A stretch of DNA of 64,000 bases, taken from positions 2,003-66,002 of the forward strand of contig JALEXS010000031.1 in assembly GCA_022780025.1 (NCBI GenBank), written 5' to 3'. The notes beneath the pieces are model-generated. The model worked only from the letters and a program-made list of their open reading frames with translations. It did not search any database and had not been told where the DNA came from. Below are positions 39,719-59,752 of the stretch, piece by piece. The stretch comes from Mollicutes bacterium. Its GTDB lineage: Bacteria; Bacillota_I; Bacilli_A; RFN20; CAG-826. Positions within the stretch are counted from its first letter, which is position 1. Every line of letters begins with the position of its first letter. Both the position numbers and the translations under genes were made by a program.

Positions 39719-41128
39719 TTATTTAATTACATTTGTTGTTTCAATATCAAAGACGTGAGCTTTTTCAAGTTTTAAAGAAACATAAAATTCTTTTTGATTT
39801 TTTGAATCTATTTCTTTATTAGTTTTTAAGTTTAATGCTTGATTATTAATAGTTCCATAGATAATAGTTTCAGTTCCTAATAATTCACTAATTTCTGATT
39901 TTATAGTTAAAACATTTTTACCTTTATTATCATCAACTAATAAAACATCTTCTGGTCTAATACCTAAAACTATATCTTTATTAATATAATCTTTTAATCT
40001 ATCTTTTAAAGTAGGTGTTAACTCAATAAATGTATCAGTTTCTGTAGCTAATTCTTTAGCATTATCATCGTCACATTCTTCGATTTTATAAATCATAAAA
40101 CGCTCACCATCGAATTTTCCTTTAATAAAATTCATGGCAGGAGCTCCAATAAATCCAGCAACAAAAATATTAATTGGATTGTTATATAATTCTTTTGGCG
40201 TACCAATTTGTTGAATATATCCATCTTTCATTACCACCATTCTATCAGCCATTGTCATAGCTTCTGTTTGATCATGAGTAACATAAATTGTTGTAGCTCC
40301 TACTGTTTTATGAATTTTAGTTATTTCACTTCTCATTTGTACACGAAGCTTAGCATCTAAGTTACTTAAAGGTTCATCCATTAAAAATACTTTCGGATTT
40401 CTAACAATTGCTCTACCTAGGGCAACACGTTGTCTTTGACCACCACTTAAAGCAGCAGGTTTTCTTTTTAAATATGGTTTAAGTCCTAATATTTCAGCAG
40501 CATATTGAACCTTCTCATCAATCTGTTCTTTAGGCATTCTTACCATTTTAAATTTGTATGTTGAAGGAGTCTTTTGTAGCTCTAAAATCTTCTCTTCATT
40601 TTTCTTAATTTCTTCGTTATTTTTTGAAATACCCTCTAAAAGTTCATCCTTTTTTAAGTTTTTCTCTTTTCCTTTTTCAATATTTCTAATATTTTTTAAA
40701 GCAATTTTATTCTTCTTTTTTAATAAACTATTATCATATTTAAGTGAAGCTATTAAGTTCTTATCAACAACTAAAATATGATTATTATTTTCATCTAATA
40801 TTTCAACAGGAAACTTACGCATCTTTAATCCAAAAGCTAAATTTTCATAAACACTCATATGAGGATATAAAGCATAATTTTGGAAAACCATTGCCATATT
40901 ACGATCAACAGGAGCAATATCATTAACTAAAACGTTATCTAAATAAATTTCACCACTTGTTATACTTTCAAGTCCTGCAACCATTCTTAAAGTAGTAGAT
41001 TTACCACATCCACTAGGTCCAACAAAAACAATAAATTCTTTATCATTAACTTCTAAATTAAAATCAAAGACTGCTTGAACATTGTTGTCATATATTTTAT
41101 TAACATTTTTAAATACTAAATTACTCAT
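39719..41128 (-). CDS. MsmX/MalK/UgpC-type sugar ABC transporter ATPase with an about 90-aa helical insertion
   Basis: Has Walker [37 protein letters not shown] and VTHDQ. A K/N/E-rich insert follows FGLKMRKFP (about 40535-40810), the same site as in 34746..36464. Confidence 0.9.
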   Translation of the reverse strand: MSNLVFKNVNKIYDNNVQAVFDFNLEVNDKEFIVFVGPSGCGKSTTLRMVAGLESITSGEIYLDNVLVNDIAPVDRNMAMVFQNYALYPHMSVYENLAFGLKMRKFPVEILDENNNHILVVDKNLIASLKYDNSLLKKKNKIALKNIRNIEKGKEKNLKKDELLEGISKNNEEIKKNEEKILELQKTPSTYKFKMVRMPKEQIDEKVQYAAEILGLKPYLKRKPAALSGGQRQRVALGRAIVRNPKVFLMDEPLSNLDAKLRVQMRSEITKIHKTVGATTIYVTHDQTEAMTMADRMVVMKDGYIQQIGTPKELYNNPINIFVAGFIGAPAMNFIKGKFDGERFMIYKIEECDDDNAKELATETDTFIELTPTLKDRLKDYINKDIVLGIRPEDVLLVDDNKGKNVLTIKSEISELLGTETIIYGTINNQALNLKTNKEIDSKNQKEFYVSLKLEKAHVFDIETTNVIK

Positions 41129-41130
41129 AA

Positions 41131-42078
41131 TTAACCCTTATTTGCTTTTGTAATAATTATTTTTCCAAATCCTTTGAGTATTACTTTTTTAGCTTTAGAA
41201 GTAATAATAAAAGACTCACCATACTTAACTTCATAATTATCATTAATAATTAATTTATCCATTAATGAAGTAACTATTTCAAATTCATTATCATTATTAA
41301 ATTCATATTCACCATTAATATCTAAATAAATAGAATTAAAATATTTATTATTCGCTACTAAATTAGAATCACTACTATTTATATTAATAACTTTTTCTTT
41401 ATAATTACCAACACTAACTACATCTAAAGCTTTATTAATATGTAATTCTCTAGGTAATCCATCTAAACCAAGTCTATTATAATCATAGAATCTATAAGTA
41501 ATATCACTAGATTGTTGAATTTCTAATAAGATAATACCTTTACCAATACCGTGTATAGTTCCAGGATTAACTACATAAACATCACCAACATTAACATCTA
41601 CTTCATTAATTAAATCTTCAAAATGATTATTATTAATATATTCCTTAATTTCTTCTTTATTTTTAGCTTTATTACCTAATATTAATTTAGCACCTTCTTC
41701 TTTTCTTAATATTAACCAGCATTCAAATTTACCTAGTGAATTCTCATTTTTTAAAGCATATTCATCATCTGGATGAACTTGAATTGATAATTTATCATTA
41801 GTAGCTATTAATTTAATAAGAATAGGAAATTTATCACCACTTAAATTAGCAAATAATTCTTTATTATTTTTAAATACTTCATCTAAAGTTTTTCCTTTAT
41901 ATAAACCATTTAAAATAATAGAAGAAAATGAACTATAGCCAGAACAAGACCACATCTCACCGATAGAATCATTATCAGTTATTTTTAATTCATTTTTAAA
42001 ATAATTACTACCCCAAATAGTTTCCTTTAAAGGTCCACTTAATAATAAAATTTCTTGATCATTTACTAATTTTTCCAT
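41131..42078 (-). CDS. manA: Mannose-6-phosphate isomerase, class I (Firmicute 315-aa type)
   Basis: ETIWGS, GEMWSCSG, FPILIKLIATNDKLSIQVHPDDEYA, GKFECWLIL, GTIHGIGKGIILLEIQQSSDITYRFYDYNR. Collinear with B. subtilis ManA as I recall it. Confidence 0.9.
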   Translation of the reverse strand: MEKLVNDQEILLLSGPLKETIWGSNYFKNELKITDNDSIGEMWSCSGYSSFSSIILNGLYKGKTLDEVFKNNKELFANLSGDKFPILIKLIATNDKLSIQVHPDDEYALKNENSLGKFECWLILRKEEGAKLILGNKAKNKEEIKEYINNNHFEDLINEVDVNVGDVYVVNPGTIHGIGKGIILLEIQQSSDITYRFYDYNRLGLDGLPRELHINKALDVVSVGNYKEKVININSSDSNLVANNKYFNSIYLDINGEYEFNNDNEFEIVTSLMDKLIINDNYEVKYGESFIITSKAKKVILKGFGKIIITKANKG

Positions 42079-42081
42079 AAT

Positions 42082-43704
42082 TTACACCAATATTTTGTCG
42101 GTATGTTCGACATTTTCACTTATTAATCTTATAAACTCATCAGCAGTTACAATTTCAACATGTTCATCTAATTGCTCAACAAGTTTTATAACATCATTAT
42201 ATTCCATTGACCAAGGATGTAAATTAATTGCTGTATAAGCTTCAATGGAATGTATATCTGTTGAATAAGAATTAATTCTTTTGGCAATTACGCTAGTATC
42301 TGCATTCCATAAAGTTTCTCTAATAGATACAAATGGTTTATCATTACCCCAATAAATACTACCATGACCACCAGCATAACGATCACCATAACAATAGATA
42401 CCGCCTTTTAAAGCATCAATTTTGCCATACTGTTCACAAATTTCTTTACTTGGTCCACTATCTAATATTTGAACAACAGATAAATCTGTTTGTTTCAAAT
42501 ATGAATCTAAACGTTTAGTAAAAGATTTTAAAGCATCTTCTGGAAATACTCTTGGATTTAAATAACCTTGACCAGATACACTACAAACATAGAAATCATT
42601 AACATCTCGATGATCATATACATAATTTAATATATTACGACCTAGATCAATTAAAGAAGGTTGAATACTCCAACCCATCTTGAAATTTCCTCTAGTAGCT
42701 GCTAAATATTTCTTATTAAAAGGAAAAGTATTATACCAAGTTTGAACATTATCTCCATCACTCATCATGATAGTAACATAATGTTTTCCATCTTCAGCTT
42801 TAATATTTTTATCATCCTTTATAACATTTTTAAATCTAGTCTCACCAAAAAAGCTTTTAGAAGCAAAAACAGACATATTTCTAGCCCAATCACTAGGAAT
42901 AGTAAATTGACCATTCATTGAAGAAATATTAACATCGGTTGGCTCATCATTAGGAACCCAACCAAATATAGGACAATCTTTTTTAGCCCAATCATGGACA
43001 TTTTTTCTAAAAGTTACAATGTCTGGATCACTCATATCTTTTGGATAAAAGAAGAAATATTTTCCAGCAATACCATAATCTGTTAAAAATTCTTGAGTAG
43101 AAGTAGGATCTTGTTGAAATAAAGCAGTATTATTAAATTCATCTTTATAAATTTTAAAACAACTTCTTTCACTCATTGTTCTAGCATCAAGTCCTAATTC
43201 AAAACCAAGTGCTTTAACATATTGTTCATATTCTATATCGACAGGTAAATAATCTTTAATTCCTGCAATACTTCTAGCAACATTTAAATTACCATATTGT
43301 TTAATATCATAAAGAACATATTTATTAGAAAATTTAGATTTAAAATTAGTTAACATTTCATCTAATGTCGTATCAACAAATGTAACACCATAATTATCTT
43401 TTAAATCATTAAGCCAAACATCATTAGTTTCAAATTGATAATAATATTCTCCACCAATTCTTGAAAAAAATCCTTGAATTGCAGTAGCCATTACTAATTG
43501 ATTTTTATTTAAACCAACTGAATCATCTTTAGTAAAATTTCTAAAAACTTTTAATACCTTATTTTCGTTGATTTTAGGTTCAAAATAATAACTAAAAGGT
43601 GTCTTATCATCATCAATAATCTTATTATTTTGACAAGATATAGTTAAAAAACTAAATAATGAGCTTAATATTAATAAACATTTATTTTTATAATTCATTT
43701 TCAT
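42082..43704 (-). CDS. Lipoprotein, GxGYxYP-like putative glycoside hydrolase family (paralogue A)
   Basis: Lipobox TIS|C. Shares three blocks with the paralogues at 43701..46580 and 54301..55794: MMSDGDNVQTW, VSGQGYLNP (42553-42573) and NLHPWSMEYNDVIKLVEQLDEHVEIVTADEFIRLI. Confidence 0.55.
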   Translation of the reverse strand: MKMNYKNKCLLILSSLFSFLTISCQNNKIIDDDKTPFSYYFEPKINENKVLKVFRNFTKDDSVGLNKNQLVMATAIQGFFSRIGGEYYYQFETNDVWLNDLKDNYGVTFVDTTLDEMLTNFKSKFSNKYVLYDIKQYGNLNVARSIAGIKDYLPVDIEYEQYVKALGFELGLDARTMSERSCFKIYKDEFNNTALFQQDPTSTQEFLTDYGIAGKYFFFYPKDMSDPDIVTFRKNVHDWAKKDCPIFGWVPNDEPTDVNISSMNGQFTIPSDWARNMSVFASKSFFGETRFKNVIKDDKNIKAEDGKHYVTIMMSDGDNVQTWYNTFPFNKKYLAATRGNFKMGWSIQPSLIDLGRNILNYVYDHRDVNDFYVCSVSGQGYLNPRVFPEDALKSFTKRLDSYLKQTDLSVVQILDSGPSKEICEQYGKIDALKGGIYCYGDRYAGGHGSIYWGNDKPFVSIRETLWNADTSVIAKRINSYSTDIHSIEAYTAINLHPWSMEYNDVIKLVEQLDEHVEIVTADEFIRLISENVEHTDKILV

Positions 43705-46580
43705 TTACCAATTGTTGTAAAGTTACTTAATTTACAAGCTTCACCAACACCATTATTTCTTCCACCATCTCTAGCTTCAAATATAATAGTTACTTCTTTA
43801 TTACTCCAATTAACTTCACTATCTAAAGTATTAAGATTAATATTTTGTTTAATATTATTTAAACTTTCTCTAGCAACATTCCAATCAAATAAAACGTAAT
43901 ATCTACCATCAGCATATAAAGAAATTTTCATTTTAGCTCCGGTATCATTATCACTTGTTGCTACCCAAGATAAATTAATATCACTAGATTCAGGTAAAAC
44001 ATAATTTTTAGCCATCCAAATATTAGTATTACCATTACGTTTTTCATCGCCACCACCATCAGAACAATCAATTTGTAATGAATTAGTAGGTTTTAAACTT
44101 TCTCTATCAATAACATCCCACCAATAATATTGAGATGTCTTATATTGTTCACCAAGCATCCAATCTTCAGTACTATTAGTAAATGTATTGTTATAAGGAT
44201 TAACTGTACTTAAATCAATTTTAGGATCAACAGTTCTAGCTTTAAAGCTAACTTGATCAAGCCTAATACCAGCATCACTATCAGCTAAAACTTCAATAGA
44301 TAATTCACACTTTTTACCCTTATAATCTTTAAAATATTGACTTAAAGGTATTGCAAAACATTGCCAACCATCACCATAAACGATTTGAGATTCAGTACCT
44401 CTAACACCTTTAAGAGTAGCTTTATTAATAATAACTTTACTTTCTTCTCCTACTTTTAAAGTAGCTTTAAAAGAACTAGATTGAACTTCAGTTAAACTAT
44501 CACAACGAGCATTAAATGATAACCAATAATTATCAATTTCAGGTAAAGTAAATGACTTTTTAGTAGCTACACTACCTTTATTAATAGATATATTACCTTT
44601 ATAAATAGCACCAACATTACTACATGCCTTATCAGTTGAATTATAAGTAATACTACTACCTTCCCAGTCCTCTTGCCATAATAAGAAATCATTATATAAA
44701 GGATCAACAGGGATTAAACTAGGATTTTGTCTTAAATAATCTTCATTAATACTAACACCATTCTTTTCAGGTATTTTAAAACTAGTAGTATTTGATTTAT
44801 CAACTATATTATCAGTCATCATCTTAATAATACGATCAACACTACATACTTCAATATCATCATTAAGCATATTAACAATAGTTCTAATATCATCATAAGA
44901 ATGAGACCAAGGATGAACGTTTATAATAGAATAACCATTAATTGAAGTAATATCTTTTTCATAAGTATTTAATCTAGCAGCAATATAAGCAGGGGTAGTT
45001 TCCCATAAAGAATCTCTAGGACCAACAAAAGGTTTACCATCAATCCAAATTACGCCACCTTGTACACTACCAAAATATTTACTACCATCATAAACGATTC
45101 CACCCTCGACTTGTTTACTAGAAGCATAGCCTTTTAAAACATTAACTAAATCATTTTGAGAATTTCCACCAATAACAGTAACATTTCTTAAATCAGCTTT
45201 CTTCATATAAATATCTAATTTTTCAGTGAAATCTTTAAAATATTCACCATTATTTTGACTAGCAAAATTACCAGCATTTATATAGCCTTGTCCTGATACA
45301 GGAGCACAGAAATAATCATATCCATTACTCATAGAATTATAAACTTCATCTAAAACATCAGGTGCTAAATCAGCTAAAGCAGGTGTAATAGACCAAGTAA
45401 CTGGGAAATTATCTTTATCTCTACCAGCTGCATTCATATAATTAGTTGCAAATCCAGCAGTATTTTGCCAATAAGTAGCATTATCACCATCACTAACTAC
45501 AAAAGCTACATAATGTTTCCCTTGTTCTGCTTTTTTATCATAATCTTTATTAGGTTGACTAAATTTATCATGTTTAAATAAATCAGCAGCATGGAAAGTT
45601 AAATTACAAGTATAATCAGTAGGTACTAAAAATTGTCCATATTGAGAAAAGAAAGCAACATCTCTATCTTCACTATATGCATAACCAAAAATAGGACTAT
45701 TTGCATCTAAAAATGAATGTAAATTCTTCTTAAATGAATTAGAAACACTACTAACATCATCATAATAAACATGGAAATATTTATTACAAATACCATAATC
45801 TTTAATAAATTTATTAGTTTTACCAGTATTATCATTATAATTTTGATGAATTAATCCTGAAGTTGATAATTCAGGCATAACAATATTAAATAACCATCTA
45901 TAAGTTAAAGCAGCATTATCTAAATTAAATTTTTCAGTTAAACCTAATTCTTGATAAAAACTTACATCATCTTTACTAACAGGTAAAAATCCTGTAATAG
46001 CAGCTAAAGTAGCTGCAGTATTAACAGAAACATCTCCAGGTCTATAAACAATATATCCAGGAGTAGCAAATCCATCTTTATTTTTCTCGGTATAAGCATT
46101 AACACCAACTAAATTATTATAACTATCTAAAGAAATTTGACTTCCCCAAGTATTATTTTTAACATAATCACTCCAAGAAGCAACATAATCTAAAACTGCT
46201 TCTTTTAAAGTAGTACTTTCATATTTAAAGCCATATTTATCACTAGCTTTCTTTATATAATATTGATCAGTATTTACACCATTAGTAACATAATTTGAAT
46301 CAACATAATATTTAACTTCTTTTCTAGCAAAAAGACCTTCAATAGCTTGAGCAGTATATAAACGATCACCATCATTAGTTACATCACTTATTACTTTGAC
46401 TGTACTATCTTTACTTAATTTAGTGTTCTTATAATAAGAAAAAGATTCAGTTGGAGTTGGTGTAGGAGGATTATCATCAGGTCCAGGTTTAACTGGTCCA
46501 TCTTTTTTACCACAACCAATTAATGGAATAGCCATTAAAAAAGATAATAAATAAACAAATTTCTTCGACTTTTTTTGCAT
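43701..46580 (-). CDS. Lipoprotein, GxGYxYP-like putative glycoside hydrolase (paralogue B) with an about 350-aa C-terminal beta-sandwich/CBM-like extension
   Basis: Lipobox LIG|C followed by a Pro-rich linker (GPVKPGPDDNPPTPTPTES). Carries VVSDGDNATYW, VSGQGYINA (45273-45293) and NVHPWSHSYDDIRTIVNMLNDDIEVCSVDRIIKMM. The C-terminal 350 aa hold two CBM-like modules. Confidence 0.55.
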   Translation of the reverse strand: MQKKSKKFVYLLSFLMAIPLIGCGKKDGPVKPGPDDNPPTPTPTESFSYYKNTKLSKDSTVKVISDVTNDGDRLYTAQAIEGLFARKEVKYYVDSNYVTNGVNTDQYYIKKASDKYGFKYESTTLKEAVLDYVASWSDYVKNNTWGSQISLDSYNNLVGVNAYTEKNKDGFATPGYIVYRPGDVSVNTAATLAAITGFLPVSKDDVSFYQELGLTEKFNLDNAALTYRWLFNIVMPELSTSGLIHQNYNDNTGKTNKFIKDYGICNKYFHVYYDDVSSVSNSFKKNLHSFLDANSPIFGYAYSEDRDVAFFSQYGQFLVPTDYTCNLTFHAADLFKHDKFSQPNKDYDKKAEQGKHYVAFVVSDGDNATYWQNTAGFATNYMNAAGRDKDNFPVTWSITPALADLAPDVLDEVYNSMSNGYDYFCAPVSGQGYINAGNFASQNNGEYFKDFTEKLDIYMKKADLRNVTVIGGNSQNDLVNVLKGYASSKQVEGGIVYDGSKYFGSVQGGVIWIDGKPFVGPRDSLWETTPAYIAARLNTYEKDITSINGYSIINVHPWSHSYDDIRTIVNMLNDDIEVCSVDRIIKMMTDNIVDKSNTTSFKIPEKNGVSINEDYLRQNPSLIPVDPLYNDFLLWQEDWEGSSITYNSTDKACSNVGAIYKGNISINKGSVATKKSFTLPEIDNYWLSFNARCDSLTEVQSSSFKATLKVGEESKVIINKATLKGVRGTESQIVYGDGWQCFAIPLSQYFKDYKGKKCELSIEVLADSDAGIRLDQVSFKARTVDPKIDLSTVNPYNNTFTNSTEDWMLGEQYKTSQYYWWDVIDRESLKPTNSLQIDCSDGGGDEKRNGNTNIWMAKNYVLPESSDINLSWVATSDNDTGAKMKISLYADGRYYVLFDWNVARESLNNIKQNINLNTLDSEVNWSNKEVTIIFEARDGGRNNGVGEACKLSNFTTIGK

Positions 46581-49768: not shown

Positions 49769-49800
49769 TATCAAAGGCTTAATAATTTAAGCCTTTGATA
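49769..49800 (-). terminator. Perfect 14-bp inverted repeat (intercistronic hairpin)
   Basis: tatcaaaggcttaa-taat-ttaagcctttgata lies between the 1105-aa lipoprotein stop (49816) and the SBP start (49751). No T-tract follows on the minus strand and the SBP RBS comes immediately after. A processing, stability or partial-termination element is more likely than a full terminator. Confidence 0.45.
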
Positions 49801-52800: not shown

Positions 52801-53133
52801 TACTCCAGTTTCATTATCTAATTTAAATGCACCATTAACAATTCTACCAACTTCCCATCTAAGTGTCTTATTTGAAGCATTATTAGGTAAGACAGTAAAT
52901 GGAATTTGAAGTGTTTCTCCTTGAGCACCTTTTAAATTAAATGGCTTTTCAAGACTTCCTTCACCACTTTCATCATCAATTGATAAAATTACTTTTGTTA
53001 CTTTAGTAACTTCTACTATTGGTGGATTAGGATCTGGTTTGTCAGGCCCAGGTGTATCAGCATTTTTACATCCAAATAAGCCAAAAGATAAGGCAATAGT
53101 TGGAACAAGTAGAAGTAATCTCTTTCTTTTCAT
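49816..53133 (-). CDS. Giant surface lipoprotein: Big_2-like domains plus three copies of an about 140-aa CBM-like module (SusE/F-like glycan-binding candidate)
   Basis: Lipobox LFG|C followed by a Pro-rich linker. The three modules share W-N-K-x-E/D-IL-x-G..., GEG-x-D..., F-x-ARxF-x-R/P...YP-x-F/I and LS-x-Y/F-IGK-x-V. Examples are FGARVFHRDGETYPKFELRI, FGARVFHRDGETYPDIKLVI and FRARTFRPATEILPEFMVKV. Confidence 0.8.
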   Translation of the reverse strand: MKRKRLLLLVPTIALSFGLFGCKNADTPGPDKPDPNPPIVEVTKVTKVILSIDDESGEGSLEKPFNLKGAQGETLQIPFTVLPNNASNKTLRWEVGRIVNGAFKLDNETGVTVEAAQSPAKIMLGAKTEGNVALKVSTTDESNIVNYVNIVVESYIPVSDIAVNGLLKSESTEYDYIFKTAKGTNWDMSGSQLKRGEELLKGNVVGGLQAPRNLTYWPTLYNFNIQVNPLEASDPAFTVESNNENVFKLKTDGTYEIVNDGEALVTIKSHAQKDVETKVKVEVAKTLYDGILQSEYDKKEVSTLSSWDLDSDHATDAQFKRYDDWNLVMMQANSRRGDEGIDSNQKIFYMGEPTRPYGIDIENRVDSNSGVDATKASGMMWAKLQVPQKAKTFNIKLGSTGSKAQGEYRVLFVLEDGTKHILTGTDNGGWKGFSGPNEESTIKLELADSIKGKNGAMVLEHRVPTKDANAELSIKKLNFEGQVDPTGITISKNSGTHKPGDSFNLLAKVTPDNVTNGAIRYYVDPDSVNKGITIDNNGQVNISETTPEGNYSVWAESVANPEYKAQYLITVKLNVTVNEWNNKNDILYGVSGYKWSIVGPGDGNTNCDLGVGEGADIHAGASGYAALELTNRKITADAPILTFRARTFRPATEILPEFMVKVIENETEKVIKAIGSTEDKVLVNNEEGDGVNFAYDLSEFIGKSVTLQIGIDRGNHGVVTKIKFIKDQIAATSVMLKKNSGEYLRNKEFSFNAFVQPWDASNSFVEFSVDKEGQGVTVTGIGSIATVKISADATLGDYKIIAKAKGSEVSSVYSLKVYSPDANVETNTWNNKEEILNGVNGVSWTIDGAYWEGTGEGVDLKVDGSNWSAIKLENREIKHSSFIFKFGARVFHRDGETYPKFELRITSDGVTETIKGIGQTESYFFVDTDDTQYCSYDLSAYIGKTVKVELGITTGTHAVIQNISFTGNPTNKTSWMNKDEILNGGWLIQGDTDAGVGEGADIKGTATYLHQEFVIGSHNDEFSFGARVFHRDGETYPDIKLVIVDGTNEEVIKANGVDTDTVHVDTDDVQIFTYNLSKYVGKKVSIRITLANNATHCVITQISQK
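50024..50478. repeat. 41-nt exact direct repeat inside the 1105-aa gene (copies at 50024-50064 and 50438-50478, 414 nt apart)
   Basis: ggataagtttcaccatctctatggaaaactctagcaccaaa occurs twice. It encodes the FGARVFHRDGETYP core of modules 2 and 3, marking a recent tandem domain duplication or gene conversion. Confidence 0.9.
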
Positions 53134-53197: not shown

Positions 53198-53211
53198 GAA
53201 AAACGGTTTTC
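53198..53211. promoter_or_regulatory. LacI-family-type operator candidate (GAAAAA-CG-GTTTTC)
   Basis: A 14-bp quasi-palindrome centred on CG, just downstream of the predicted -10. Its 13-mer GAAAAACGGTTTT recurs in inverted orientation at 55859-55871. Confidence 0.55.
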
Positions 53212-53220
53212 TACAAGGTC

Positions 53221-53249
53221 ATTATAATTGAAAGCGCTTCCAATAACAA
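53221..53249 (-). promoter_or_regulatory. Sigma-A-type promoter of the mannoside operon with an embedded cre site
   Basis: Read on the minus strand: -35 TTGTTA (53249-53244), a 17-nt spacer, then -10 TATAAT (53226-53221). The spacer contains TGGAAGCGCTTTCA (plus-strand TGAAAGCGCTTCCA, 53229-53242), which matches the cre consensus at 13 of 14 positions. Confidence 0.55.
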
Positions 53250-53315
53250 TACAAAATTATATTTTTTTAAAATTTATTTTTGAAAATTTATAAGCAAATA
53301 AGAAAAAATATTTAA

Positions 53316-54317
53316 TTATTTATTAGGTTTTCTAATTGAACTATGAATTCTTAATTTTGATTTAATTAAGACACAATGCATAACATCTTTTGATTCAATT
53401 TGATTTATAAGCATTTCAACAGCTTTACTACCAATTAATTTATAATCTTGTTTAGCATAAGATAATTTAGGAGTAAAAATATAATCAGTTTGAGATTTAC
53501 CTAAAGCAAATACACCAACGTCTTCTCCTACTTTTAATTTCTTTTTATTAATAGCTTTATATAATCCAGCAGCTAAAAATGAATTACATGTAATAAAAGC
53601 AACATTCTTCTCAGCTTTTTCTATTCCTAACTTATAACCTTCTTCAATAGTACCTTCTAGATCAGTAATATATTTATCACTAGGATCAATATGTTTTTCA
53701 TTACATACATCAAAGAAGCCATCTTTACGATCTTGAACAATAGTTAATTTACTATCAGCATTTAATAAATAAACTTTATCATAATTATTTAAAAGTAATT
53801 CAGTTACTTCTCTAGTTAAATTATAATTATCAACATCAATATAATCATATCTTATATTTTTACTAGGTCTACCAATAATAACGCACTCAATCGAATTATT
53901 TTGAATTTCACTCAATCTAGAGTCATCTATATTTGGTGCTAATAATATCGCTCCATCAATAGGAGCTTTTCCAAATCTAAGATTATTAATTAAGTCATTT
54001 TCATTATCGTTAGATAATAATAATATTGAATATCCCTTTTTACTTGCTTTAGATAAAGCACTTATAACTAATTCACCATAAAAGTTATGGTCTTCCATAT
54101 GTTCTTTTTTCTCAAGTAATATCGCAATAATATTAGATTTATGTTTACCAGTGGATAAAGATGATGCATAAAAATTAGGAACATAATCTAATTCCTTACA
54201 AGCTTTTAATACTCTTTCTTTTAATTCATCACTAACTAATTTTTTACCAGATAAGACATTAGAAACTGTTGATTTAGCAACACCAGCTTGTTTAGCAACA
54301 TCAATTATTTTTGTCAT
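53316..54317 (-). CDS. LacI/GalR-family transcriptional regulator
   Basis: N-terminal HTH MTKIIDVAKQAGVAKSTVSNVLSGKKLVSDELKERVLKACKELDYVPN plus a periplasmic-binding-protein-like sensor. Overlaps the upstream GxGYxYP-like gene by 17 nt. Confidence 0.9.
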   Translation of the reverse strand: MTKIIDVAKQAGVAKSTVSNVLSGKKLVSDELKERVLKACKELDYVPNFYASSLSTGKHKSNIIAILLEKKEHMEDHNFYGELVISALSKASKKGYSILLLSNDNENDLINNLRFGKAPIDGAILLAPNIDDSRLSEIQNNSIECVIIGRPSKNIRYDYIDVDNYNLTREVTELLLNNYDKVYLLNADSKLTIVQDRKDGFFDVCNEKHIDPSDKYITDLEGTIEEGYKLGIEKAEKNVAFITCNSFLAAGLYKAINKKKLKVGEDVGVFALGKSQTDYIFTPKLSYAKQDYKLIGSKAVEMLINQIESKDVMHCVLIKSKLRIHSSIRKPNK

Positions 54318-55794
54318 ACTTTTCCACCATATTTTCCTTAATTAATTCAATAAGTTCATCAGCATAAACTAATTCTATATCATCATGCAAATGACTAATA
54401 ACATAATCTAAATCATTAATAGATATTGACCAAGGATGAACATTTAATACAGTATATCCATCTTGACTATGAATATTTGGTTTCATTGAATTAATTTTAT
54501 TAATATATTCATCTAAGAATGATTTTGGGGTATTACCAGTAGTTGCATATGGACACCATAATGAATATCTAACTGATACAAATGGTTTACCATTCGAAAA
54601 TATTATTTTTCCATTACCACTACTATATCTATCAGGATCAATCTCCCAAATTCCTCCTATTATTTTATCATTTTTACTATAATATTGTAAACGTGAACTG
54701 ACAAATTCATTAGATGTAAAGGTATCTAATCCATCTAATAAACAAACAACTCTTTGATCAGATTTTTCCATTCCTTTCATTGATTTATCAATAAATTCTT
54801 TAATAAATTTATCAGGAAAACTTAAAATATTTGCATAACCAATTCCAGATACTGATGCAATAAAGTAGTCATTTTTAGGTGTATTATAAATATTTTCGAT
54901 AACTTCTTTAGAAATATTGATTAAAGAAGGTGAAATTGTCCAAGTAATTTTATAATTTAAAGGACTTTTTAATCTATTACCAAATGTTGATGTAGTTTGA
55001 AAATCTCTTTCTAACCATTGAATATTATCTCCATCTGATACAACAATAGCTAAATAATGTTTATTTTTTCTAATTTCAGTTCTTTTAGTCTTTTGTTTTA
55101 TCTTATTTTTATTAGATTCTATAAAATAACTATGATTACTACTCCAATCACTAGGAAGAGCATAATGTCCATATTTAGAAATATGTTTAATAAAACTTAT
55201 TTCATCATCATTCCATCCATAAATTGGACTAACAGGTTTAAGCCATCTTAAAATTTCTTCTCTAAAAGATAAATCTTCACTATTTTCACTAGTATAAATA
55301 CAAGCTAATCTATTTTTAATAGAATAATCTCTAAGCATTAAATGAAAATTATCTTTTTTAACTACTTGATGAACTAAAGCATTATTATTTAATTTATCTT
55401 TAACAGAATTAAATACTATTTTTTGTCTATAAGCATTACTACCTTTAAAATTATCTAAGTTATAAATAACTTTTAAATCAATAATTGATAAAACTTTATC
55501 AATTATTTTATTAGGAACTGCTAAAAAATCATATTTAGCACATAACATCGCAGCTAAATTAATTGATACATCACTAGAATCTAAGTTATAAGTAATAATA
55601 TTACTAAATTCATTTTTATATTTTATAATTAAATCATAGATACTAATTTCTTTATGTTCTTCATGAAGATAAGATAAATAATTATCAATATCTATAAATA
55701 CTTTAATATTTTTTCTATTTAAAATACCTTGAGTAAATACACAAAGAGCTTGTTCTTCTAATGAATAACTATTCCATTTAAGTAAATAAACCAT
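54301..55794 (-). CDS. Cytoplasmic GxGYxYP-like putative glycoside hydrolase (paralogue C)
   Basis: No signal peptide. Carries VVSDGDNIQWL, VSGIGYANI (54826-54846) and NVHPWSISINDLDYVISHLHDDIELVYADELIELI. Co-transcribed with the LacI gene. Confidence 0.55.
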   Translation of the reverse strand: MVYLLKWNSYSLEEQALCVFTQGILNRKNIKVFIDIDNYLSYLHEEHKEISIYDLIIKYKNEFSNIITYNLDSSDVSINLAAMLCAKYDFLAVPNKIIDKVLSIIDLKVIYNLDNFKGSNAYRQKIVFNSVKDKLNNNALVHQVVKKDNFHLMLRDYSIKNRLACIYTSENSEDLSFREEILRWLKPVSPIYGWNDDEISFIKHISKYGHYALPSDWSSNHSYFIESNKNKIKQKTKRTEIRKNKHYLAIVVSDGDNIQWLERDFQTTSTFGNRLKSPLNYKITWTISPSLINISKEVIENIYNTPKNDYFIASVSGIGYANILSFPDKFIKEFIDKSMKGMEKSDQRVVCLLDGLDTFTSNEFVSSRLQYYSKNDKIIGGIWEIDPDRYSSGNGKIIFSNGKPFVSVRYSLWCPYATTGNTPKSFLDEYINKINSMKPNIHSQDGYTVLNVHPWSISINDLDYVISHLHDDIELVYADELIELIKENMVEKYDKNN

Positions 55795-55858
55795 AAATAC
55801 TCCTAAAAATTATCACTTTTTACTATATAATACAAAAAATAAAAATATTTTAATATAA

Positions 55859-55871
55859 AAAACCGTTTTTC
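55859..55871. promoter_or_regulatory. Second copy of the operator-like 13-mer (reverse complement GAAAAACGGTTTT)
   Basis: AAAACCGTTTTTC lies in the divergent intergenic region. It abuts the predicted -35 of the GH38 promoter and is about 65 nt upstream of the ATG at 55794 (minus). Confidence 0.55.
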
Positions 55872-55900
55872 TTTACATCTTTGTATTTTTTCTGTAATAT
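55872..55900 (+). promoter_or_regulatory. Sigma-A-type promoter of the GH38 gene
   Basis: -35 TTTACA (55872-55877), a 17-nt spacer, then -10 TAATAT (55895-55900). GAGG RBS at 55914-55917 and ATG at 55926. Confidence 0.5.
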
Positions 55901-55925
55901 TAAATTAATACTTGAGGTAACAACA

Positions 55926-58754
55926 ATGAAAACAATACACGTTATTAGCGGCACACATTGGGACCGTGAGTGGCGCCATACTGCCGAACAATCAAAATTA
56001 AGACTAGTTGATTTAATGGATAATATTATCAACATCTTAGAAAAGAAAAAGACTTATAAATTTTTCTGTGTCGATGGAGGAACTATTGTTATTGAAGATT
56101 ATTTAACAATTAGACCAGAAAATAAAGAACGTATTAAAAAATTAATTAAAGATAAAAAAATGTTTATTGTTAATTGGTATACATTACCAGAAACTAATAC
56201 AGTTGCTCCAGAATCTTTAATAAGAAATTTATTATTAGGTAAAAAAATGGGTAAAGAATATGGAGGTACTATAAAAAGTGGTTATACAGCTACAAGTTAT
56301 GGACAACCTTCTCAACTTCCTCAACTTTATAATGGATTTGGTATTACTGATGCTATATTTTATCGTGGAACAAATAAACATGTTTTAACTCCATTATTTA
56401 CTTGGGTAAGTCCAGATGGATCTAGTTTAGATACTTTAAGAACTTTTGATGAAGTTACAAGAACTAACTGGTTCTTCTATATCCATGGACCAGCTGTCCT
56501 TGGTAAAGGTCAAAAAGATTTATCTTATAAATATGATAAGACTCAATTACCTGTTCACATGGCTGATATATATTCTTATGAAAAAGCATTTACTTTATTA
56601 CATGAAGATTTTGATTATATTCATGATAAAAAAGTTCAAAAAAATGCTTTAGATGCTTTAATTAAACAAGCTGAACCATATGCCATTGGAGATGAAATAT
56701 TAGCATTAAATATGGAAGATAATGATGAACCATATCGTTATTTACCTGAATTAATTAAAGATTTAAATAAGATTTATCCAGATGTTGAGATTATTCAAGA
56801 TACTTTAGATGATTATATGGCTAATATTAGAAGTAAAAAAGATTATAAGAAAGCTACTCATCATGGTGAATTACGTTATACAACAATGGAATATAATAAT
56901 TTCAATGCTTTACTTGGTGCAACTCACTCATCAAGAATTAAAATTAAATTATTAAATGATGATTGTGAAAATAATTTAATTAATGTTGCTGAACCTTTAT
57001 CTTCTTATGCTAAATGTTTTGGTAAAGAATATCCTACTAATAACTTAAATAGAGCTTGGAGATATTTACTTAAATGTCATGCCCACGATTCTATTTGTGG
57101 AGCTGCTGTTGATAGAGCTCATGAAGATATGCTATATAACTTCTCTTTAGCTAAAACTGTTGCTGAAGAATGTACAAATAGAGCTACTATTAATTTATTT
57201 TCTAAAATCAATACTAAAAAGAATTTCTTAGAAAATGATTATGTAATGACTTTTTATAATACTTTACCATTTGAAAGAAAAGGAATTTATGAAGTAGTTT
57301 TTGATACTCCTAAAGGAAATGGATCTAAAGTTGATATTGGCGTAGATGGAGCTAGTTCAGGTGAAGAATTCTACGATATAGTCGATAATAACGGCAATAA
57401 AGTTCCACATGTAGAACTTTATAATGATGATATTTCTATTGGTGTTGAGCGTGAAATGGATACTAAAGCTATTAAATTTAAAGCTAATAGAAAACGTATT
57501 TTAATTGAAGCTAATATACCTCAAAATGGTTATAAAACTTATGCATTAAGATTTAGAAAACCTGAGTTTGCTTATCATCCTGAAATTATTGATAATCGTA
57601 AATTAATTGCTAGAGATAATGGAATTTTAGAAAATGAATATTTAAAAGTTACCTTAAATTCTAATGGCACTATCAATATTTTAAATAAAGAAAATAATCA
57701 TTTAATGAATAATTTAATGTATTATAGCGATAAAGGTGAAACAGGTAGTGCTCATATTTCTACAGAACCAAAAAGAAATAGAACATATACTTCTTTAGGT
57801 GGTACTTCTACTATTACTATGCTTGAATCTAATGAATTAAGAGGTTCATTTAAAATAGATTTAGTAATGACTATTCCTGCTGCTGCTACTATTTCAGGAG
57901 ATGATCGTACTCGTGAAATGAAAGAATTACCTATTTCTACTATTTTAACTTTAGAAAAAGGTTCTAAATATTTAAAAGTTAAGACTACTTTAAATAATGA
58001 ATGTAGAGATCATAAACTTGTAGTTAATTTCCCATCTTATATAGAAAAGGCTGATTGGGTCGATGTAGAATCTGCTTGGGATGTTGCTCATAGAACAATT
58101 AAATGGCGTGATCATAAAGATAATTTCGAAGGATTTACTCCATTCCAACCTATGCAAAACTTTGTAGATGTTAGTGATAATAATCTTGGATTAGCTATCT
58201 TAACTAAGGGCTTAAGAGAATATGAAATTGCAGATGATACACTCCGTACTATTAAAATTACTTTAATTAGAACTCAAAGAGCTTATATGACTGCTAATAG
58301 TTCTATGAATGTTGAAGAATTAGATAAATATACAGGTCAACATTCGTTTGGTACTTTAACTTATGAATATGCTATTTATCCTCATAAAGGTAATTATAGA
58401 GATGGTAATGTTTTAAGCGAAGCTTATAACCATAAAGTACCTGTCAAAGCAATTCAAGGTGTTGTAATGGATGGTATTTTAAACGATACAGATTCATTTA
58501 TTAAAATTAATCAAGAAAATAAAATATATATATCAGGTATTAAAGAAAGTGAAGATAAATCTGGTATTATAGTTAGATTTTGGAATCTTACAAATGAAAC
58601 TTTAAATACTAATATTAAAACTTTATTACCTATTAAAGAAGTAAAACATGTTAATTTAGATGAAACTAATGAAACTGCTATTGCTATTAATAATGGTTCA
58701 TTTGATTTTGAAATGAGACCTCATAAAATTGAAACATTCTTATTTAAATTATAA
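55926..58754 (+). CDS. Glycoside hydrolase family 38 alpha-mannosidase (cytoplasmic)
   Basis: The track ORF starts at 55881; the RBS-supported ATG is at 55926 (MKTIHVISGTHWDREWRHTAEQ...). HxHWDREW is the GH38 N-terminal metal-site motif. Also has HAHDSICG. Length 942 aa, no signal peptide. Confidence 0.9.
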   Translation: MKTIHVISGTHWDREWRHTAEQSKLRLVDLMDNIINILEKKKTYKFFCVDGGTIVIEDYLTIRPENKERIKKLIKDKKMFIVNWYTLPETNTVAPESLIRNLLLGKKMGKEYGGTIKSGYTATSYGQPSQLPQLYNGFGITDAIFYRGTNKHVLTPLFTWVSPDGSSLDTLRTFDEVTRTNWFFYIHGPAVLGKGQKDLSYKYDKTQLPVHMADIYSYEKAFTLLHEDFDYIHDKKVQKNALDALIKQAEPYAIGDEILALNMEDNDEPYRYLPELIKDLNKIYPDVEIIQDTLDDYMANIRSKKDYKKATHHGELRYTTMEYNNFNALLGATHSSRIKIKLLNDDCENNLINVAEPLSSYAKCFGKEYPTNNLNRAWRYLLKCHAHDSICGAAVDRAHEDMLYNFSLAKTVAEECTNRATINLFSKINTKKNFLENDYVMTFYNTLPFERKGIYEVVFDTPKGNGSKVDIGVDGASSGEEFYDIVDNNGNKVPHVELYNDDISIGVEREMDTKAIKFKANRKRILIEANIPQNGYKTYALRFRKPEFAYHPEIIDNRKLIARDNGILENEYLKVTLNSNGTINILNKENNHLMNNLMYYSDKGETGSAHISTEPKRNRTYTSLGGTSTITMLESNELRGSFKIDLVMTIPAAATISGDDRTREMKELPISTILTLEKGSKYLKVKTTLNNECRDHKLVVNFPSYIEKADWVDVESAWDVAHRTIKWRDHKDNFEGFTPFQPMQNFVDVSDNNLGLAILTKGLREYEIADDTLRTIKITLIRTQRAYMTANSSMNVEELDKYTGQHSFGTLTYEYAIYPHKGNYRDGNVLSEAYNHKVPVKAIQGVVMDGILNDTDSFIKINQENKIYISGIKESEDKSGIIVRFWNLTNETLNTNIKTLLPIKEVKHVNLDETNETAIAINNGSFDFEMRPHKIETFLFKL

Positions 58755-58756
58755 TT

Positions 58757-59752
58757 ATGAAATTTGAAATTAAAGATTTAGGAATTTTTAATGAAAATTC
58801 TGGATTAATTAAACTTAAAAAGTGCTCTGATGGAATATTTGAAGAAGGTAAAAATGGAGTCACCTCTATTTATTCTACAGGAGATAAAAAAGTCGAATTT
58901 ATTAGTTTTAATGAAGGTAGCTTAGCTTATGTTACTTCTTCTATTGGTTATCCTGCTTATTACAAAATTAAGCCTATTAAAATTGAAGCACCTATAAAAG
59001 CTGTTTTAATGGATTTAGATGGAACTAGTGTTAAAAGTGAAGAATTTTGGATTTATATTATTGAAAAAACCGTCCAATCTTTATTAAAAAATGAAAATTT
59101 CCATTTCAGTAAAGAAGATTTACCATATGTTTCAGGACATTCTGTTTCGGAACATTTAAAATATTGTATTGATAAATATGTACCAAATGCAACTTTAGAA
59201 GAAGCTAGAAATTATTACTTTTATCATACTCACTTTGAAATGAATGAAATAATGGAAGGCAGAGGAAAGGAAAATGCTTTTACTCCTTCTAAACATTTAA
59301 AAGAATTCTTACTAGGTTTAAAAGAATTAAATATTAAAATAGGATTAGTAACTAGTGGATTATATGAAAAAGCATGGCCTGAAATATTAAGTGCTTTTAA
59401 TACATTAAAAATGGGTGATCCTAAAGATTTTTATGATTGTTCTATTAGTGCTGGATATCCTTTAAAGAAAGGTAGTGTTGGTACATTAGGTGAATTATCA
59501 CCTAAACCACATCCATGGCTATATGCAGAAACTGCTACTATCGGTTTAAATATTCCAGAAAGTGAACGTAATCATATAATTGGCATAGAAGATTCAGCAG
59601 CTGGAGTATGTTCAATTAGATTAGCTGGATTTAATTGTATCGGCTTTGATGGAGGTAACATTATCTCATCTGGGACAAAAGATTTATGCTCATATTATTT
59701 TTCTGATTTATTAGATATCTTAGATTTTATCAAAAAAATAAACTCAAAATAA
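58757..59752 (+). CDS. HAD-superfamily hydrolase (subfamily IA, beta-phosphoglucomutase/phosphatase-like) with an about 80-aa N-terminal extension
   Basis: HAD motif I is LMDLDGTSV, motif II is LVTSG and motifs III/IV are KPHP...IGIEDSAAGVCSIRLAGF. Its ATG lies 2 nt after the GH38 stop. Confidence 0.75.
   Translation: MKFEIKDLGIFNENSGLIKLKKCSDGIFEEGKNGVTSIYSTGDKKVEFISFNEGSLAYVTSSIGYPAYYKIKPIKIEAPIKAVLMDLDGTSVKSEEFWIYIIEKTVQSLLKNENFHFSKEDLPYVSGHSVSEHLKYCIDKYVPNATLEEARNYYFYHTHFEMNEIMEGRGKENAFTPSKHLKEFLLGLKELNIKIGLVTSGLYEKAWPEILSAFNTLKMGDPKDFYDCSISAGYPLKKGSVGTLGELSPKPHPWLYAETATIGLNIPESERNHIIGIEDSAAGVCSIRLAGFNCIGFDGGNIISSGTKDLCSYYFSDLLDILDFIKKINSK

Follow-up and report, generated by a model that had tools for sequence, protein, structure and literature searches.

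Three GxGYxYP paralogues in a putative LacI-controlled mannoside locus of a low-GC gut bacterium

The locus occupies ∼20 kb (39719–59752) of the window, the 64-kb stretch of DNA that was analysed, which comes from a low-GC gut 'Mollicutes/Bacilli' MAG. All of the genes of the original prediction were found where it had placed them: three GxGYxYP genes, a GH38 α-mannosidase, a HAD hydrolase, ManA, a LacI regulator, a full ABC importer and a 1105-aa lipoprotein. The GH38, ManA, HAD, LacI, solute-binding protein (SBP) and ABC ATPase assignments were all confirmed by Pfam. Other carbohydrate loci adjoin in the window, namely rhamnose and fucose catabolism, GH3, GH78-like and a second ABC system.

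The last gene of a long operon on the minus strand is an MsmX/UgpC-like ABC ATPase (469 aa, 39719..41128; Pfam ABC_tran and OB_MalK; NCBIfam UgpC subfamily, 463 bits), which carries an insertion of ∼90 aa inside the nucleotide-binding domain. On the same strand lie ManA, a class I mannose-6-phosphate isomerase (315 aa, 41131..42078; PMI_typeI_cat and MPI_cupin; NCBIfam TIGR00218 at 163 bits against a cut-off of 116), the 540-aa (42082..43704) and 959-aa (43701..46580) GxGYxYP lipoproteins, and two ABC permeases. The first permease (305 aa, 46593..47510) has BPD_transp_1 in the precomputed annotation of an identical gene and is conserved with the locus. The second (309 aa, 47503..48432) is a membrane protein by sequence, kept beside the SBP gene in 39 loci, and owes its name to where it lies and to being conserved with the permeases of related loci, rather than to a Pfam scan of its gene. 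The SBP is itself a lipoprotein (438 aa, 48435..49751, minus strand; Pfam SBP_bac_8/1), whose PDB relatives are all distant (E ≥ 2e-12). A putative terminator-like hairpin with a 14-bp stem (49769..49800) separates it from the 1105-aa surface lipoprotein (49816..53133, minus strand). LacI (333 aa, 53316..54317; Pfam LacI and Peripla_BP_3) and the 497-aa GxGYxYP protein (54301..55794) follow on the minus strand, and GH38 (55881..58754) and HAD (58757..59752) are on the plus strand. A Pfam scan of the locus detected no glycosidase besides GH38 and the GxGYxYP candidates and no known endo-acting family, as had been predicted.

Membership of the GxGYxYP family, which had been suggested from a short motif, was established by Pfam for all three paralogues (PF14323, E 1e-40 to 1e-52). 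Against a cut-off of 27 bits, GxGYxYP_C matched the 540-aa protein at 178 bits (E 2.8e-52), the 959-aa protein at 138 bits (E 5.5e-40) and the 497-aa protein at 141 bits (E 8.5e-41). The 540-aa protein also matched all three models of the N-terminal domain, whose three α/β repeats precede the barrel, giving four GxGYxYP domains, the 959-aa protein the second and third and the 497-aa protein the third only. Pairwise identity is 33–35%. Alignment agreed with the motif blocks described from the sequence, SDGDN (D316, D318, N319), S-G-x-G-Y and HPWS being common to the three proteins. E254 is shared as well. The GxGY blocks read SGQGYLNP, SGQGYINA and SGIGYANI; the trailing Y-P of G-x-G-Y-x-Y-P is lost in the paralogues, and BT2193 of the same family itself reads GSSYIFP. 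Among 60 aligned sequences collected through word and HMM searches, E254, D316 and D318 were invariant and N319 at least 90% conserved. None of the four residues differed among the three paralogues or within 98 sequences from the loci; for SDGDN the result from the loci is partly circular, as the motif formed part of one search pattern. G378 and G380 are conserved, as is Y381, which never varies in the 98 sequences.

The sole PDB relative found was BT2193 (3SGG, E 9e-43 with the 540-aa protein). An AF2 model of the 540-aa protein (pLDDT 93.9) matched 3SGG in Foldseek over 531 alignment columns (E 7.7e-36, TM 0.81/0.85), and this was the only significant structural match. E254/D316/D318 align with E272/D331/D333 of BT2193, the triad with which GxGYxYP was proposed as a novel glycoside hydrolase in 2014 (Rigden et al., 2014, PMC4071793), and N319 corresponds to its Asn334. 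This triad is the SDGDN block of the original prediction; the glycosidase hypothesis for a mannose-containing glycan is reasonable but not new. The same study described genomic contexts including α-mannan PUL69, GH92 and GH38, suggested that the family fills gaps in the breakdown of yeast mannan or of the N-glycan core, and stated that assays of members from α-mannan PULs had detected no activity (PMC4071793). The earlier statement that the family has no demonstrated activity still holds, as no later characterisation was found in the PDB (to April 2026), NCBIfam, which has no GxGYxYP model, or the literature searched.

The C-terminal domain is a seven-stranded β/α barrel of the allantoinase, CE4 deacetylase and GH38–GH57 fold class (PMC4071793), and non-glycosidase chemistry is therefore possible. 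The GxGYxYP proteins of a mannose-glycan locus might handle a phosphodiester or phosphate, acetyl or pyruvyl decoration, or cleave a mannosyl-phosphate linkage, leaving all glycosidic cleavage to GH38 (GH125 elsewhere). The fusion of some clostridial members to a PTP-like phytase domain and the failed glycosidase assays would fit such a role (PMC4071793), as would the GH38 and HAD genes described below. Against it, the catalytic residues of CE4 and of allantoinase are all missing from BT2193 (Rigden et al., PMC4071793), and the conserved cleft has an aromatic lining and three acidic residues with the arrangement of a GH9 active site. Extracellular cutting of a polymer also cannot be explained by a cytoplasmic, exo-acting GH38, and no further extracellular enzyme is encoded in the locus. 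We regard this alternative as improbable.

The predicted localisation of the paralogues, two lipoproteins and one cytoplasmic protein, agreed with their N-terminal signals. The 540-aa (...FLTISC), 959-aa (lipobox LIGC), 1105-aa and SBP proteins each have a basic-hydrophobic N-terminus ending in Cys. The 497-aa reading frame starts at the first possible start codon, has no signal peptide and, as predicted, overlaps lacI, the overlap being 17 nt; ∼14 orthologues of it are likewise without a signal peptide. The paralogues represent three separate orthogroups (Gx540, Gx959 and Gx497), two of lipoproteins and one without a signal peptide, with conserved localisation, and all three are conserved across Bacillota genomes of 27–59% GC. 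Gx959 orthologues occur in 18 loci, being 48–72% identical in other species, with one near-identical copy (95%, L003). The claim of two extra CBM-like modules in the 959-aa protein was borne out in part: two extra C-terminal modules (about residues 600–959) are present and conserved in orthologues, but their likeness to CBMs was not confirmed, as they have no Pfam or PDB match and profile comparison gave only a faint resemblance to the repeated module of the 1105-aa lipoprotein (hhalign, probability 24%).

The 1105-aa protein had been called a glycan-binding-type lipoprotein. Pfam detected only Big_2 and a weak MAM-like match in its repeated β-sandwich modules. An AF2 model of residues 145–500 (pLDDT 93.3) is all-β, and its best Foldseek matches were mostly CBM/Ig-like β-sandwiches (CBM11, CBM4, CBM22, CBM16, Big_2-CBM56 and SGBP-B), with further matches to accessory modules of multidomain enzymes. 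The conserved core thus models as non-catalytic Ig/CBM-like β-sandwiches, consistent with the predicted call, and the protein probably binds glycan. As no other extracellular catalytic candidate exists, the surface GxGYxYP proteins are the likely cutters.

All four domains of GH38 (N-terminal, middle and two C-terminal) exceeded their Pfam cut-offs, at 92.9, 42.2, 62.6 and 52.7 bits, and the enzyme is predicted to be cytoplasmic; it probably starts at ATG 55926 and not at TTG 55881. The closest solved structures, from Enterococcus and Streptococcus pyogenes, are 5KBP/3LVT (E 8e-87) and 2WYH (E 1e-77). The sole NCBIfam match was the MngB model (NF007331, E 2e-120), at 403 bits against an equivalog cut-off of 1138, and assignment as a mannosylglycerate hydrolase was rejected. 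The founding member of this nearest clade, MngB, acts on a 6-phospho-mannoside, which would favour phosphate chemistry at the locus, although the score is far under the equivalog cut-off. The HAD-IA hydrolase (331 aa, with a ∼75-aa N-terminal extension) is tightly coupled to GH38. Of the Pfam models it passes just two general ones, HAD_2 and Hydrolase, and it has no PDB match. Similarity to the β-phosphoglucomutase family is weak, and that identity was rejected (TIGR02009, 28.8 against 153; TIGR01990, 25.6 against 189). HAD orthologues are at least 67% identical and adjoin GH38 in four of five look-ups. The strong conservation of this phosphatase-type gene and its linkage to the cytoplasmic paralogue also favour the phosphate reading.

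To assess the association in related genomes, the neighbours of 75 other homologue loci were compared. GH38, GH125, ManA or hexokinase was present within 10 kb in 26 of these; the remaining 49 had no mannose gene in that range, many contigs being short and many homologues being of other subtypes. Ten loci had the GH38 type of the window, six had a second GH38 type (plus one unclustered GH38 reading frame) and six had GH125, while ManA was present in 11 and hexokinase in three. A GH127-like protein was seen in four variant loci and other families each in at most one neighbour cluster. The α-mannosidases GH38 and GH125 are the sole glycosidase families that recur at all often beside the homologues. 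The paralogues matched neither a characterised CAZy family nor a non-glycosidase family, and the GH38/ManA association was present; the original prediction had named the reverse of each beforehand as grounds for abandoning it.

The substrate might be high-mannose N-glycan, from glycoproteins of the host or the diet, rather than fungal mannan, with a surface GxGYxYP enzyme as a new type of endoglycosidase that releases the glycan and the cytoplasmic paralogue handling the Man-β-1,4-GlcNAc core, which GH38 cannot cleave. The N-glycan pathway of Streptococcus pneumoniae reportedly consists of an ABC importer with cytoplasmic GH38 and GH125, and the streptococcal and enterococcal origin of the nearest GH38 structures is in keeping with this. 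Weak barrel-level Foldseek matches of the 540-aa model to the GH18 endo-β-N-acetylglucosaminidases Endo H and BT1285 point the same way (probability 0.6–0.85, TM 0.23/0.4), but are not significant (E > 0.03). β-Linkages of the N-glycan core were also favoured by Rigden et al. (PMC4071793). However, GH18, GH85, GH20 and GH130 were not found beside any of the 75 homologues, among the labelled gene clusters and the top 25 Pfam families listed for unlabelled neighbours of at least 380 aa, and GH2 occurred once. The regulon members, moreover, are confined to mannose catabolism. An N-glycan substrate is considered rather unlikely.

A 14-bp palindrome with a central CG, GAAAAACGGTTTTC, is present in both promoter regions of the locus, at 53198..53211, 77 nt upstream of the long operon, and at 55858..55871 (GAAAAACGGTTTTT on the minus strand) in the divergent Gx497/GH38 intergenic region. 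Counting both strands, the window contains four matches at up to two mismatches, against 0.67 expected. The 12-bp core occurs in 49 copies in 28 related loci (1.27 Mb searched), where by our own 4^12 arithmetic about 0.15 would be expected. Nearly all copies are intergenic, 20–230 nt upstream of the first genes of operons, and the downstream genes are almost always GxGYxYP, GH38–HAD, ABC, lipoprotein or ManA. The copy between Gx497 and GH38 has the same position in L020, L024, L025 and L067, and lacI adjoins the cytoplasmic GxGYxYP gene in related loci. The presence of the palindrome in both promoter regions and of its core at related operon starts points to a single LacI regulon containing all of these genes. 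A second element, TGAAAGCGCTTCCA (53229..53242), with one mismatch to TGWAANCGNTNWCA, is possibly a cre-like site for CcpA catabolite control; this is tentative, as matches in the window are no commoner than chance.

The window is packed with carbohydrate loci, and the GxGYxYP genes could lie beside GH38, HAD and ManA by circumstance while serving a different pathway. Synteny and the shared operator both contradict this. Many species-level genomes, from gut Bacillota whose GC differs widely (27–59%), carry the same set of genes. The association was also recovered when the search was started from HAD: four of five orthologues sit in HAD–GH38 <> GxGYxYP (cytoplasmic)–LacI–ABC–GxGYxYP loci. One putative operator precedes all of the gene groups, and coincidence is very hard to credit.

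These data suggest, with a probability of roughly 0.55, a Gram-positive-type polysaccharide utilisation locus that is controlled by LacI, relies on an ABC importer and serves the use of a mannose-rich glycan, cleaved by the GxGYxYP proteins. The 1105-aa lipoprotein would hold the glycan at the cell surface, and the 959- and 540-aa lipoproteins would cut it to oligosaccharides, through the inter-domain cleft and the triad proposed for BT2193. Fragments would be imported by the SBP, the two permeases and the MsmX-like ATPase, and depolymerisation completed in the cytoplasm by the 497-aa protein and GH38. HAD may act on a phosphorylated intermediate or decoration, and mannose-6-phosphate would enter glycolysis via ManA. 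LacI at GAAAAACGGTTTTC would repress all three transcription units until an inducer, presumably a manno-oligosaccharide, appears. Fungal-type α-mannan would be the first candidate substrate, followed by high-mannose N-glycan and then other mannosylated glycoconjugates; the assignment of endo and exo action to particular paralogues is likewise conjectural. Counting against a glycosidase pathway are the absence of a mannose kinase from the locus, the unexplained role of HAD and the 49 loci without a mannose gene.

A more far-reaching reading, which we think doubtful, makes these proteins the founders of a new family of glycoside hydrolases (or of enzymes cleaving glycan phosphodiesters), in a widespread Bacillota regulon for surface endo- and internal cleavage of fungal-type, possibly phosphorylated, α-mannan. 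The coupled MngB-like GH38 and HAD would handle phospho-mannosyl products, and if so, mannose-6-phosphate would reach ManA without a kinase. Returning to the favoured reading, the three proteins belong to a known family within a well-defined mannoside regulon, and would cleave its glycan. As it recurs in many gut bacteria, the locus offers a clean system for testing, and is not novel in kind.

Among known systems, the B. thetaiotaomicron MAN-PUL1-3, which Cuskin et al. are said to have described in 2015, combine a surface binding protein, surface cleavage, oligosaccharide import and internal exo-mannosidases. The locus shares this order of functions, surface cleavage being presumed here, but lacks GH76, GH92, GH99, GH125 and SusC/D and imports into the cytoplasm by an ABC importer; it is not a Bacteroides-type α-mannan PUL. 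GH76, GH92 and GH99 are absent from the whole window, and GH125 and a single GH92 occur in some related loci only. With the S. pneumoniae and S. pyogenes systems it shares a cytoplasmic GH38 of the same clade and an ABC oligosaccharide importer, with GH125 in some related loci. It differs in having no GH85 or GH18 endoglycosidase, GH92, GH20 or ROK kinase. As Pfam detected no GH18, GH85, GlcNAc or β-mannoside enzymes in the locus, it was not classed as a Firmicute N-glycan locus, and to our knowledge GxGYxYP proteins and HAD form no part of the streptococcal N-glycan/mannoside systems. Unlike E. coli MngB, GH38 has no PTS in its locus, and a small-solute substrate is unlikely because of the extracellular binding and presumed cleavage apparatus.

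The closest comparison is with the GxGYxYP family itself. BT2193 (PF14323, PF16216, PF20957 and PF20958) is about 24% identical and has the same two-domain fold, the same Glu/Asp/Asp and Asn cleft residues and the same G-x-G-Y block. The company is also alike: PUL69 (BT3853–BT3862) has two GxGYxYP genes (Rigden et al., 2014, PMC4071793) and includes BT3857/BT3859, and GH92 and, in Caldithrix, GH38 accompany the family. No earlier description of split-localisation paralogues or of a LacI-operator link to GH38, HAD and ManA was found in the literature. The three orthogroups, the recurring α-mannosidase neighbours and the conserved operator are additions of the present analysis. Whereas the GxGYxYP proteins of SusC/D PULs belong to a different import system, those described here come from an ABC-importer locus of a monoderm-type bacterium, two being lipoproteins and one cytoplasmic. 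They form three orthogroup-level paralogues of split localisation, linked through a putative LacI operator to GH38, HAD and ManA.

The mannoside-type utilisation locus (39719-59752) was found to contain exactly the genes named in the original prediction, and its long ORFs were intact under genetic code 11 in DNA of ∼25 % GC. On the minus strand, the gene for the 497-aa GxGYxYP protein (Gx497; 54301-55794, Pfam) overlaps that of a LacI-family regulator (53316-54317, Pfam LacI) by 17 nt, and a 182-bp gap separates the latter from the gene for a 1105-aa lipoprotein (49816-53133). These are followed on the same strand by a solute-binding lipoprotein (SBP; 48435-49751, Pfam SBP_bac_8), two permeases (47503-48432 and 46593-47510), the 959-aa GxGYxYP lipoprotein (Gx959; 43701-46580), the 540-aa GxGYxYP lipoprotein (Gx540; 42082-43704, Pfam), whose gene overlaps that of Gx959 by 4 nt, ManA (41131-42078, Pfam PMI type I) and an MsmX-like ATPase (39719-41128, Pfam ABC_tran and OB_MalK). 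Divergent from the minus-strand genes, the plus strand carries GH38 (55881-58754, four Pfam domains), for which ATG 55926 is the probable true start, and a HAD hydrolase (58757-59752, Pfam HAD_2). Lipoprotein-type N-termini were present on the SBP and on the 540-, 959- and 1105-aa proteins; the 497-aa protein lacks one, and there is no possible start codon further upstream. A DeoR regulator and rhamnose catabolism genes lie on the upstream flank, and six minus-strand ORFs (101-328 aa), none with a Pfam family, lie directly downstream (59874-63865). As the genes on both flanks belong to other functions, the boundaries originally drawn are sound.

Some further features of the locus were recorded. 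A hairpin with a 14-bp stem (49769-49800), located between the 1105-aa lipoprotein and SBP genes, could act as an attenuator within the operon or stabilise the mRNA. The MsmX/UgpC-like ATPases at 39719-41128 and 34746-36464 both carry an insertion of ∼90-100 residues within the nucleotide-binding domain, the 137-position ABC_tran profile being stretched across 233 and 216 residues respectively. Solved relatives of the SBP were uninformative on specificity, as the matches were distant and to binders of many different sugars. A scan for sigma-70 promoters was likewise uninformative, as it gave more matches in shuffled sequences than in the real AT-rich DNA.

The family guess made from motifs was borne out, with all three paralogues matching GxGYxYP_C in Pfam (E-values 2.8e-52, 5.5e-40 and 8.5e-41 for the 540-, 959- and 497-aa proteins respectively) in addition to N-terminal GxGYxYP domains; in Pfam none scored confidently to a characterised CAZy family or to a non-glycosidase family. 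NCBIfam offered no model that covers them. Identity between the paralogues is 33-35 %, and all three have E254, SDGDN, S-G-x-G-Y and HPWS in common. The sole solved relative among PDB sequences was BT2193 of Bacteroides thetaiotaomicron (3SGG), which was detected at E 9e-43 with a single sequence and at 7e-106 with a 60-sequence profile. The AlphaFold2 model of Gx540 (pLDDT 93.9, pTM 0.89) likewise had 3SGG as its only significant Foldseek match in the PDB (to April 2026; E 7.7e-36, TM 0.81, 531 alignment columns), and every other match had E > 5e-3. A likeness to GH18 endoglycosidases was not significant (E > 0.03, TM 0.23). The single-sequence, profile and Foldseek searches for characterised relatives thus yielded 3SGG alone.

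The SDGDN block corresponds to D331, D333 and N334 of BT2193, and E254 to E272; by this alignment, E254, D316 and D318 are the putative Glu/Asp/Asp triad that Rigden et al. (2014) put forward. All three were invariant in the 60-sequence alignment, and E254, D316, D318, N319, Y381, H496, W466 and W498 were invariant in 98 sequences from related loci, a result that is partly circular for SDGDN because this block stood in one of the two search patterns. With 2595 clusters (50 % identity) at E <= 1e-10 among 1.84 billion representatives, GxGYxYP is a family of modest size that is enriched in gut metagenomes. The two extra C-terminal modules of Gx959 had no match in Pfam or the PDB and are kept among its orthologues; against the repeat module of the 1105-aa protein they gave a weak hhalign match (probability 24 %).

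When GTDB was scanned with a single genome for each species, 76 loci were obtained, of which 75 belong to other species. They were mapped by tblastn and ORF clustering; the genomes concerned range from 27 to 59 % GC. Two architectures recurred. In type A, which resembles the locus studied here, a cytoplasmic GxGYxYP protein (∼490-500 aa) and LacI are followed by a large Big_2 lipoprotein, the SBP, two permeases, GxGYxYP proteins of ∼980 and ∼540 aa and, variably, ManA and the ATPase, with GH38-HAD divergent or, in one locus (L008), within the same operon. In type B (L020, L024, L025, L033, L058 and L067), HAD-GH38 is divergent from a cytoplasmic GxGYxYP protein, LacI, the SBP, two permeases, a GxGYxYP protein of ∼760-880 aa and a MAM-like lipoprotein. 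The three paralogues fell into three orthogroups: those of Gx959 (18 loci, 48-72 % identity in other species) and Gx540 (∼18 loci, 41-72 %) consist of lipoproteins, while none of the Gx497 orthogroup (∼14 loci, 36-54 %) has a signal peptide. The outside/inside split of the paralogues is therefore old and has been maintained.

The predicted association with mannose genes was recovered in related genomes, GH38, GH125, ManA or hexokinase lying within 10 kb in 26 of the 75 loci (representatives confirmed by Pfam). Pfam scans of 147 cluster representatives of further neighbours (ORFs >= 380 aa) listed a GH127-like protein in four variant loci and every other glycosidase family at most once (GH92, GH78, GH2 and a GH28-like protein); GH18, GH85, GH20 and GH130 were absent from the families listed, these being the top 25 of each scan. 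With HAD as an independent anchor, four of five orthologues looked up stood in the HAD-GH38 arrangement divergent from cytoplasmic GxGYxYP-LacI-ABC-GxGYxYP, and one did not.

Variants of these loci were also observed. In four (L029, L031, L034 and L040) a GxGYxYP lipoprotein of ∼880-910 aa adjoins the GH127-like protein, which suggests that some members of the family target a different glycan; a ricin-lectin repeat lipoprotein is also adjacent in three of the four, its place in L031 being taken by an unclassified 1023-aa protein. In five loci from Acutalibacteraceae and related Clostridia MAGs (L050, L051, L056, L061 and L068), GH125 and a patatin-like gene are immediately followed downstream by a single secreted GxGYxYP gene, with a second-type GH38 nearby in two (L050 and L056) and no ABC importer within 10 kb in any. 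The lipoprotein/ABC locus was also carried by L024, L025, L032 and L067, labelled Prevotella sp. CAG:755, Faecalibacterium prausnitzii, Akkermansia muciniphila and Bacteroidaceae bacterium. Because their close relatives otherwise come from Bacilli and Clostridia MAGs and all four are bins of one study ('cleanbin' isolate names, H076xx-L1 samples), we suspect the taxon names of at least the three non-Bacillota.

An imperfect palindrome, GAAAAACGGTTTTC, is present in both promoter regions of the locus: the copy at 53198-53211 precedes the long operon by 77 nt, and that at 55858-55871 lies in the gap separating Gx497 from the divergently transcribed GH38 gene. The only other match in the window, with two mismatches, was located elsewhere; by chance, 0.67 matches in all would be expected. 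The 12-mer core AAAAACGGTTTT occurred 49 times in 28 of 78 loci (1.27 Mb in total), against ∼0.15 expected (bases x 2 strands / 4^12). With few exceptions the copies fall between genes, 20-230 nt ahead of the gene that opens an operon, this being a large lipoprotein, an SBP, the divergent cytoplasmic GxGYxYP/GH38 pair, a MAM-like lipoprotein, a permease or ManA. We read GAAAAACGGTTTTC as a putative operator to which the LacI repressor of the locus would bind, and which would unite GxGYxYP, GH38-HAD, the importer, the binding proteins and mannose catabolism as one predicted regulon. A cre-like site at 53229-53242, statistically not distinctive, hints at catabolite control.

Elsewhere in the window, a neighbouring glycan locus (17175-32376) encodes a GH78-like rhamnosidase (758 aa), a 508-aa GH127/GH88-like protein, two Big_2 lipoproteins (814 aa, and 998 aa with a beta-helix), two proteins without a Pfam family (740 and 607 aa), two permeases and an AraC regulator, and is accompanied by a perfect cre site, TGTAAGCGCTTTCA (32384-32397). 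Four consecutive plus-strand ORFs at 1615-8332 (434, 804, 555 and 441 aa), with a Pfam match (Big_2) in the 804-aa ORF only, may be another uncharacterised surface system.

The best-conserved part of the 1105-aa lipoprotein (residues 145-500) gave a confident all-beta model (pLDDT 93.3) resembling Ig-like and carbohydrate-binding beta-sandwich modules (CBM11, CBM4, CBM22, CBM16 and Big_2-CBM56) and a Bacteroides surface glycan-binding protein. The earlier label of a glycan-binding type therefore stands, and a hidden catalytic domain was rejected on the basis of this model. The two GxGYxYP lipoproteins are the sole candidates in the locus for surface cleavage.

The HAD hydrolase is the best-conserved gene of the cassette, far above its neighbours (identity is 67 % or higher throughout the best 120 of 5081 homologues), and it abuts or overlaps the stop codon of GH38 in each of the cassettes observed. 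It has an N-terminal extension of ∼75 aa with no family match, scored far under the cut-off in NCBIfam and found no match in the PDB search; its homologues are named 'HAD family phosphatase' or 'beta-phosphoglucomutase' at source. A scheme in which the cytoplasmic GxGYxYP protein is a phosphorylase acting with HAD as a beta-phosphomutase is thought unlikely because this paralogue retains the three acidic residues of the secreted ones. GH38 showed MngB-like affinity in NCBIfam, well below the equivalog cut-off, and mannosylglycerate was ruled out as the substrate on this score and on the surface binding and cleavage apparatus of the locus. The GH38 family is reported to act on xanthan too (PMC12827396); xanthan was ruled out here as the locus is without PL8, GH88, GH5/9 and GH3.

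In the proposed pathway, the binding lipoprotein would capture the glycan, the two GxGYxYP lipoproteins would cleave it at the surface and the ABC system would import the products, which the third paralogue and GH38 would trim in the cytoplasm; ManA would convert mannose-6-phosphate to fructose-6-phosphate, and LacI would de-repress the system on sensing a product. Since the assignable genes of the regulon are those of mannose metabolism only, with alpha-mannosidases as the partner glycosidases, the simplest choice of substrate is a glycan that consists mostly of mannose. Fungal-type alpha-mannan is ranked first; high-mannose N-glycans are possible, as an endoglycosidase and GlcNAc genes can sit elsewhere in the genome. 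The conserved HAD, the MngB-like affinity of GH38 and the phytase-like domain to which some members of the family are reported to be fused (PMC4071793) leave room for a phosphorylated substrate or intermediate.

From sequence and context, GxGYxYP as the predicted glycosidase of a mannose locus is plausible. The original prediction withstood both computational comparisons, of family and of gene neighbourhood, but it is not novel and re-derives a published hypothesis (PMC4071793). A GxGYxYP crystal structure has existed since 2011, and in 2014 Rigden et al. solved and analysed BT2193, proposed that these proteins form a new family of glycoside hydrolases with this triad, pointed out GH92 and GH38 neighbours and two members in the alpha-mannan-responsive PUL69, and suggested that the family may supply bonds which the known pathways for mannan and N-glycans lack; mannan-PUL members were assayed and no activity was found (PMC4071793). 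The open-access papers and preprints searched yielded, after 2014, only one passing mention for GxGYxYP, PF14323, 3SGG or BT3857/BT3859/BT2193/BT2200. As the idea is already published, the gain is incremental rather than conceptual. The locus and its relatives offer a compact and unusually clean context for assigning an activity, with GxGYxYP proteins as the only candidate extracellular enzymes and downstream chemistry confined to mannose, and the predicted operator and repressor are a handle for finding the inducer. Were an activity assigned, CAZy would gain a family and the use of mannose-rich glycans by many uncultured gut Clostridia and Bacilli would be explained. Four features were, as far as we could find, not described before: the monoderm, ABC-type form of the locus, the division of its paralogues into three conserved orthogroups whose localisation is split, the tight GH38-HAD-LacI-GxGYxYP cassette and the conserved operator.
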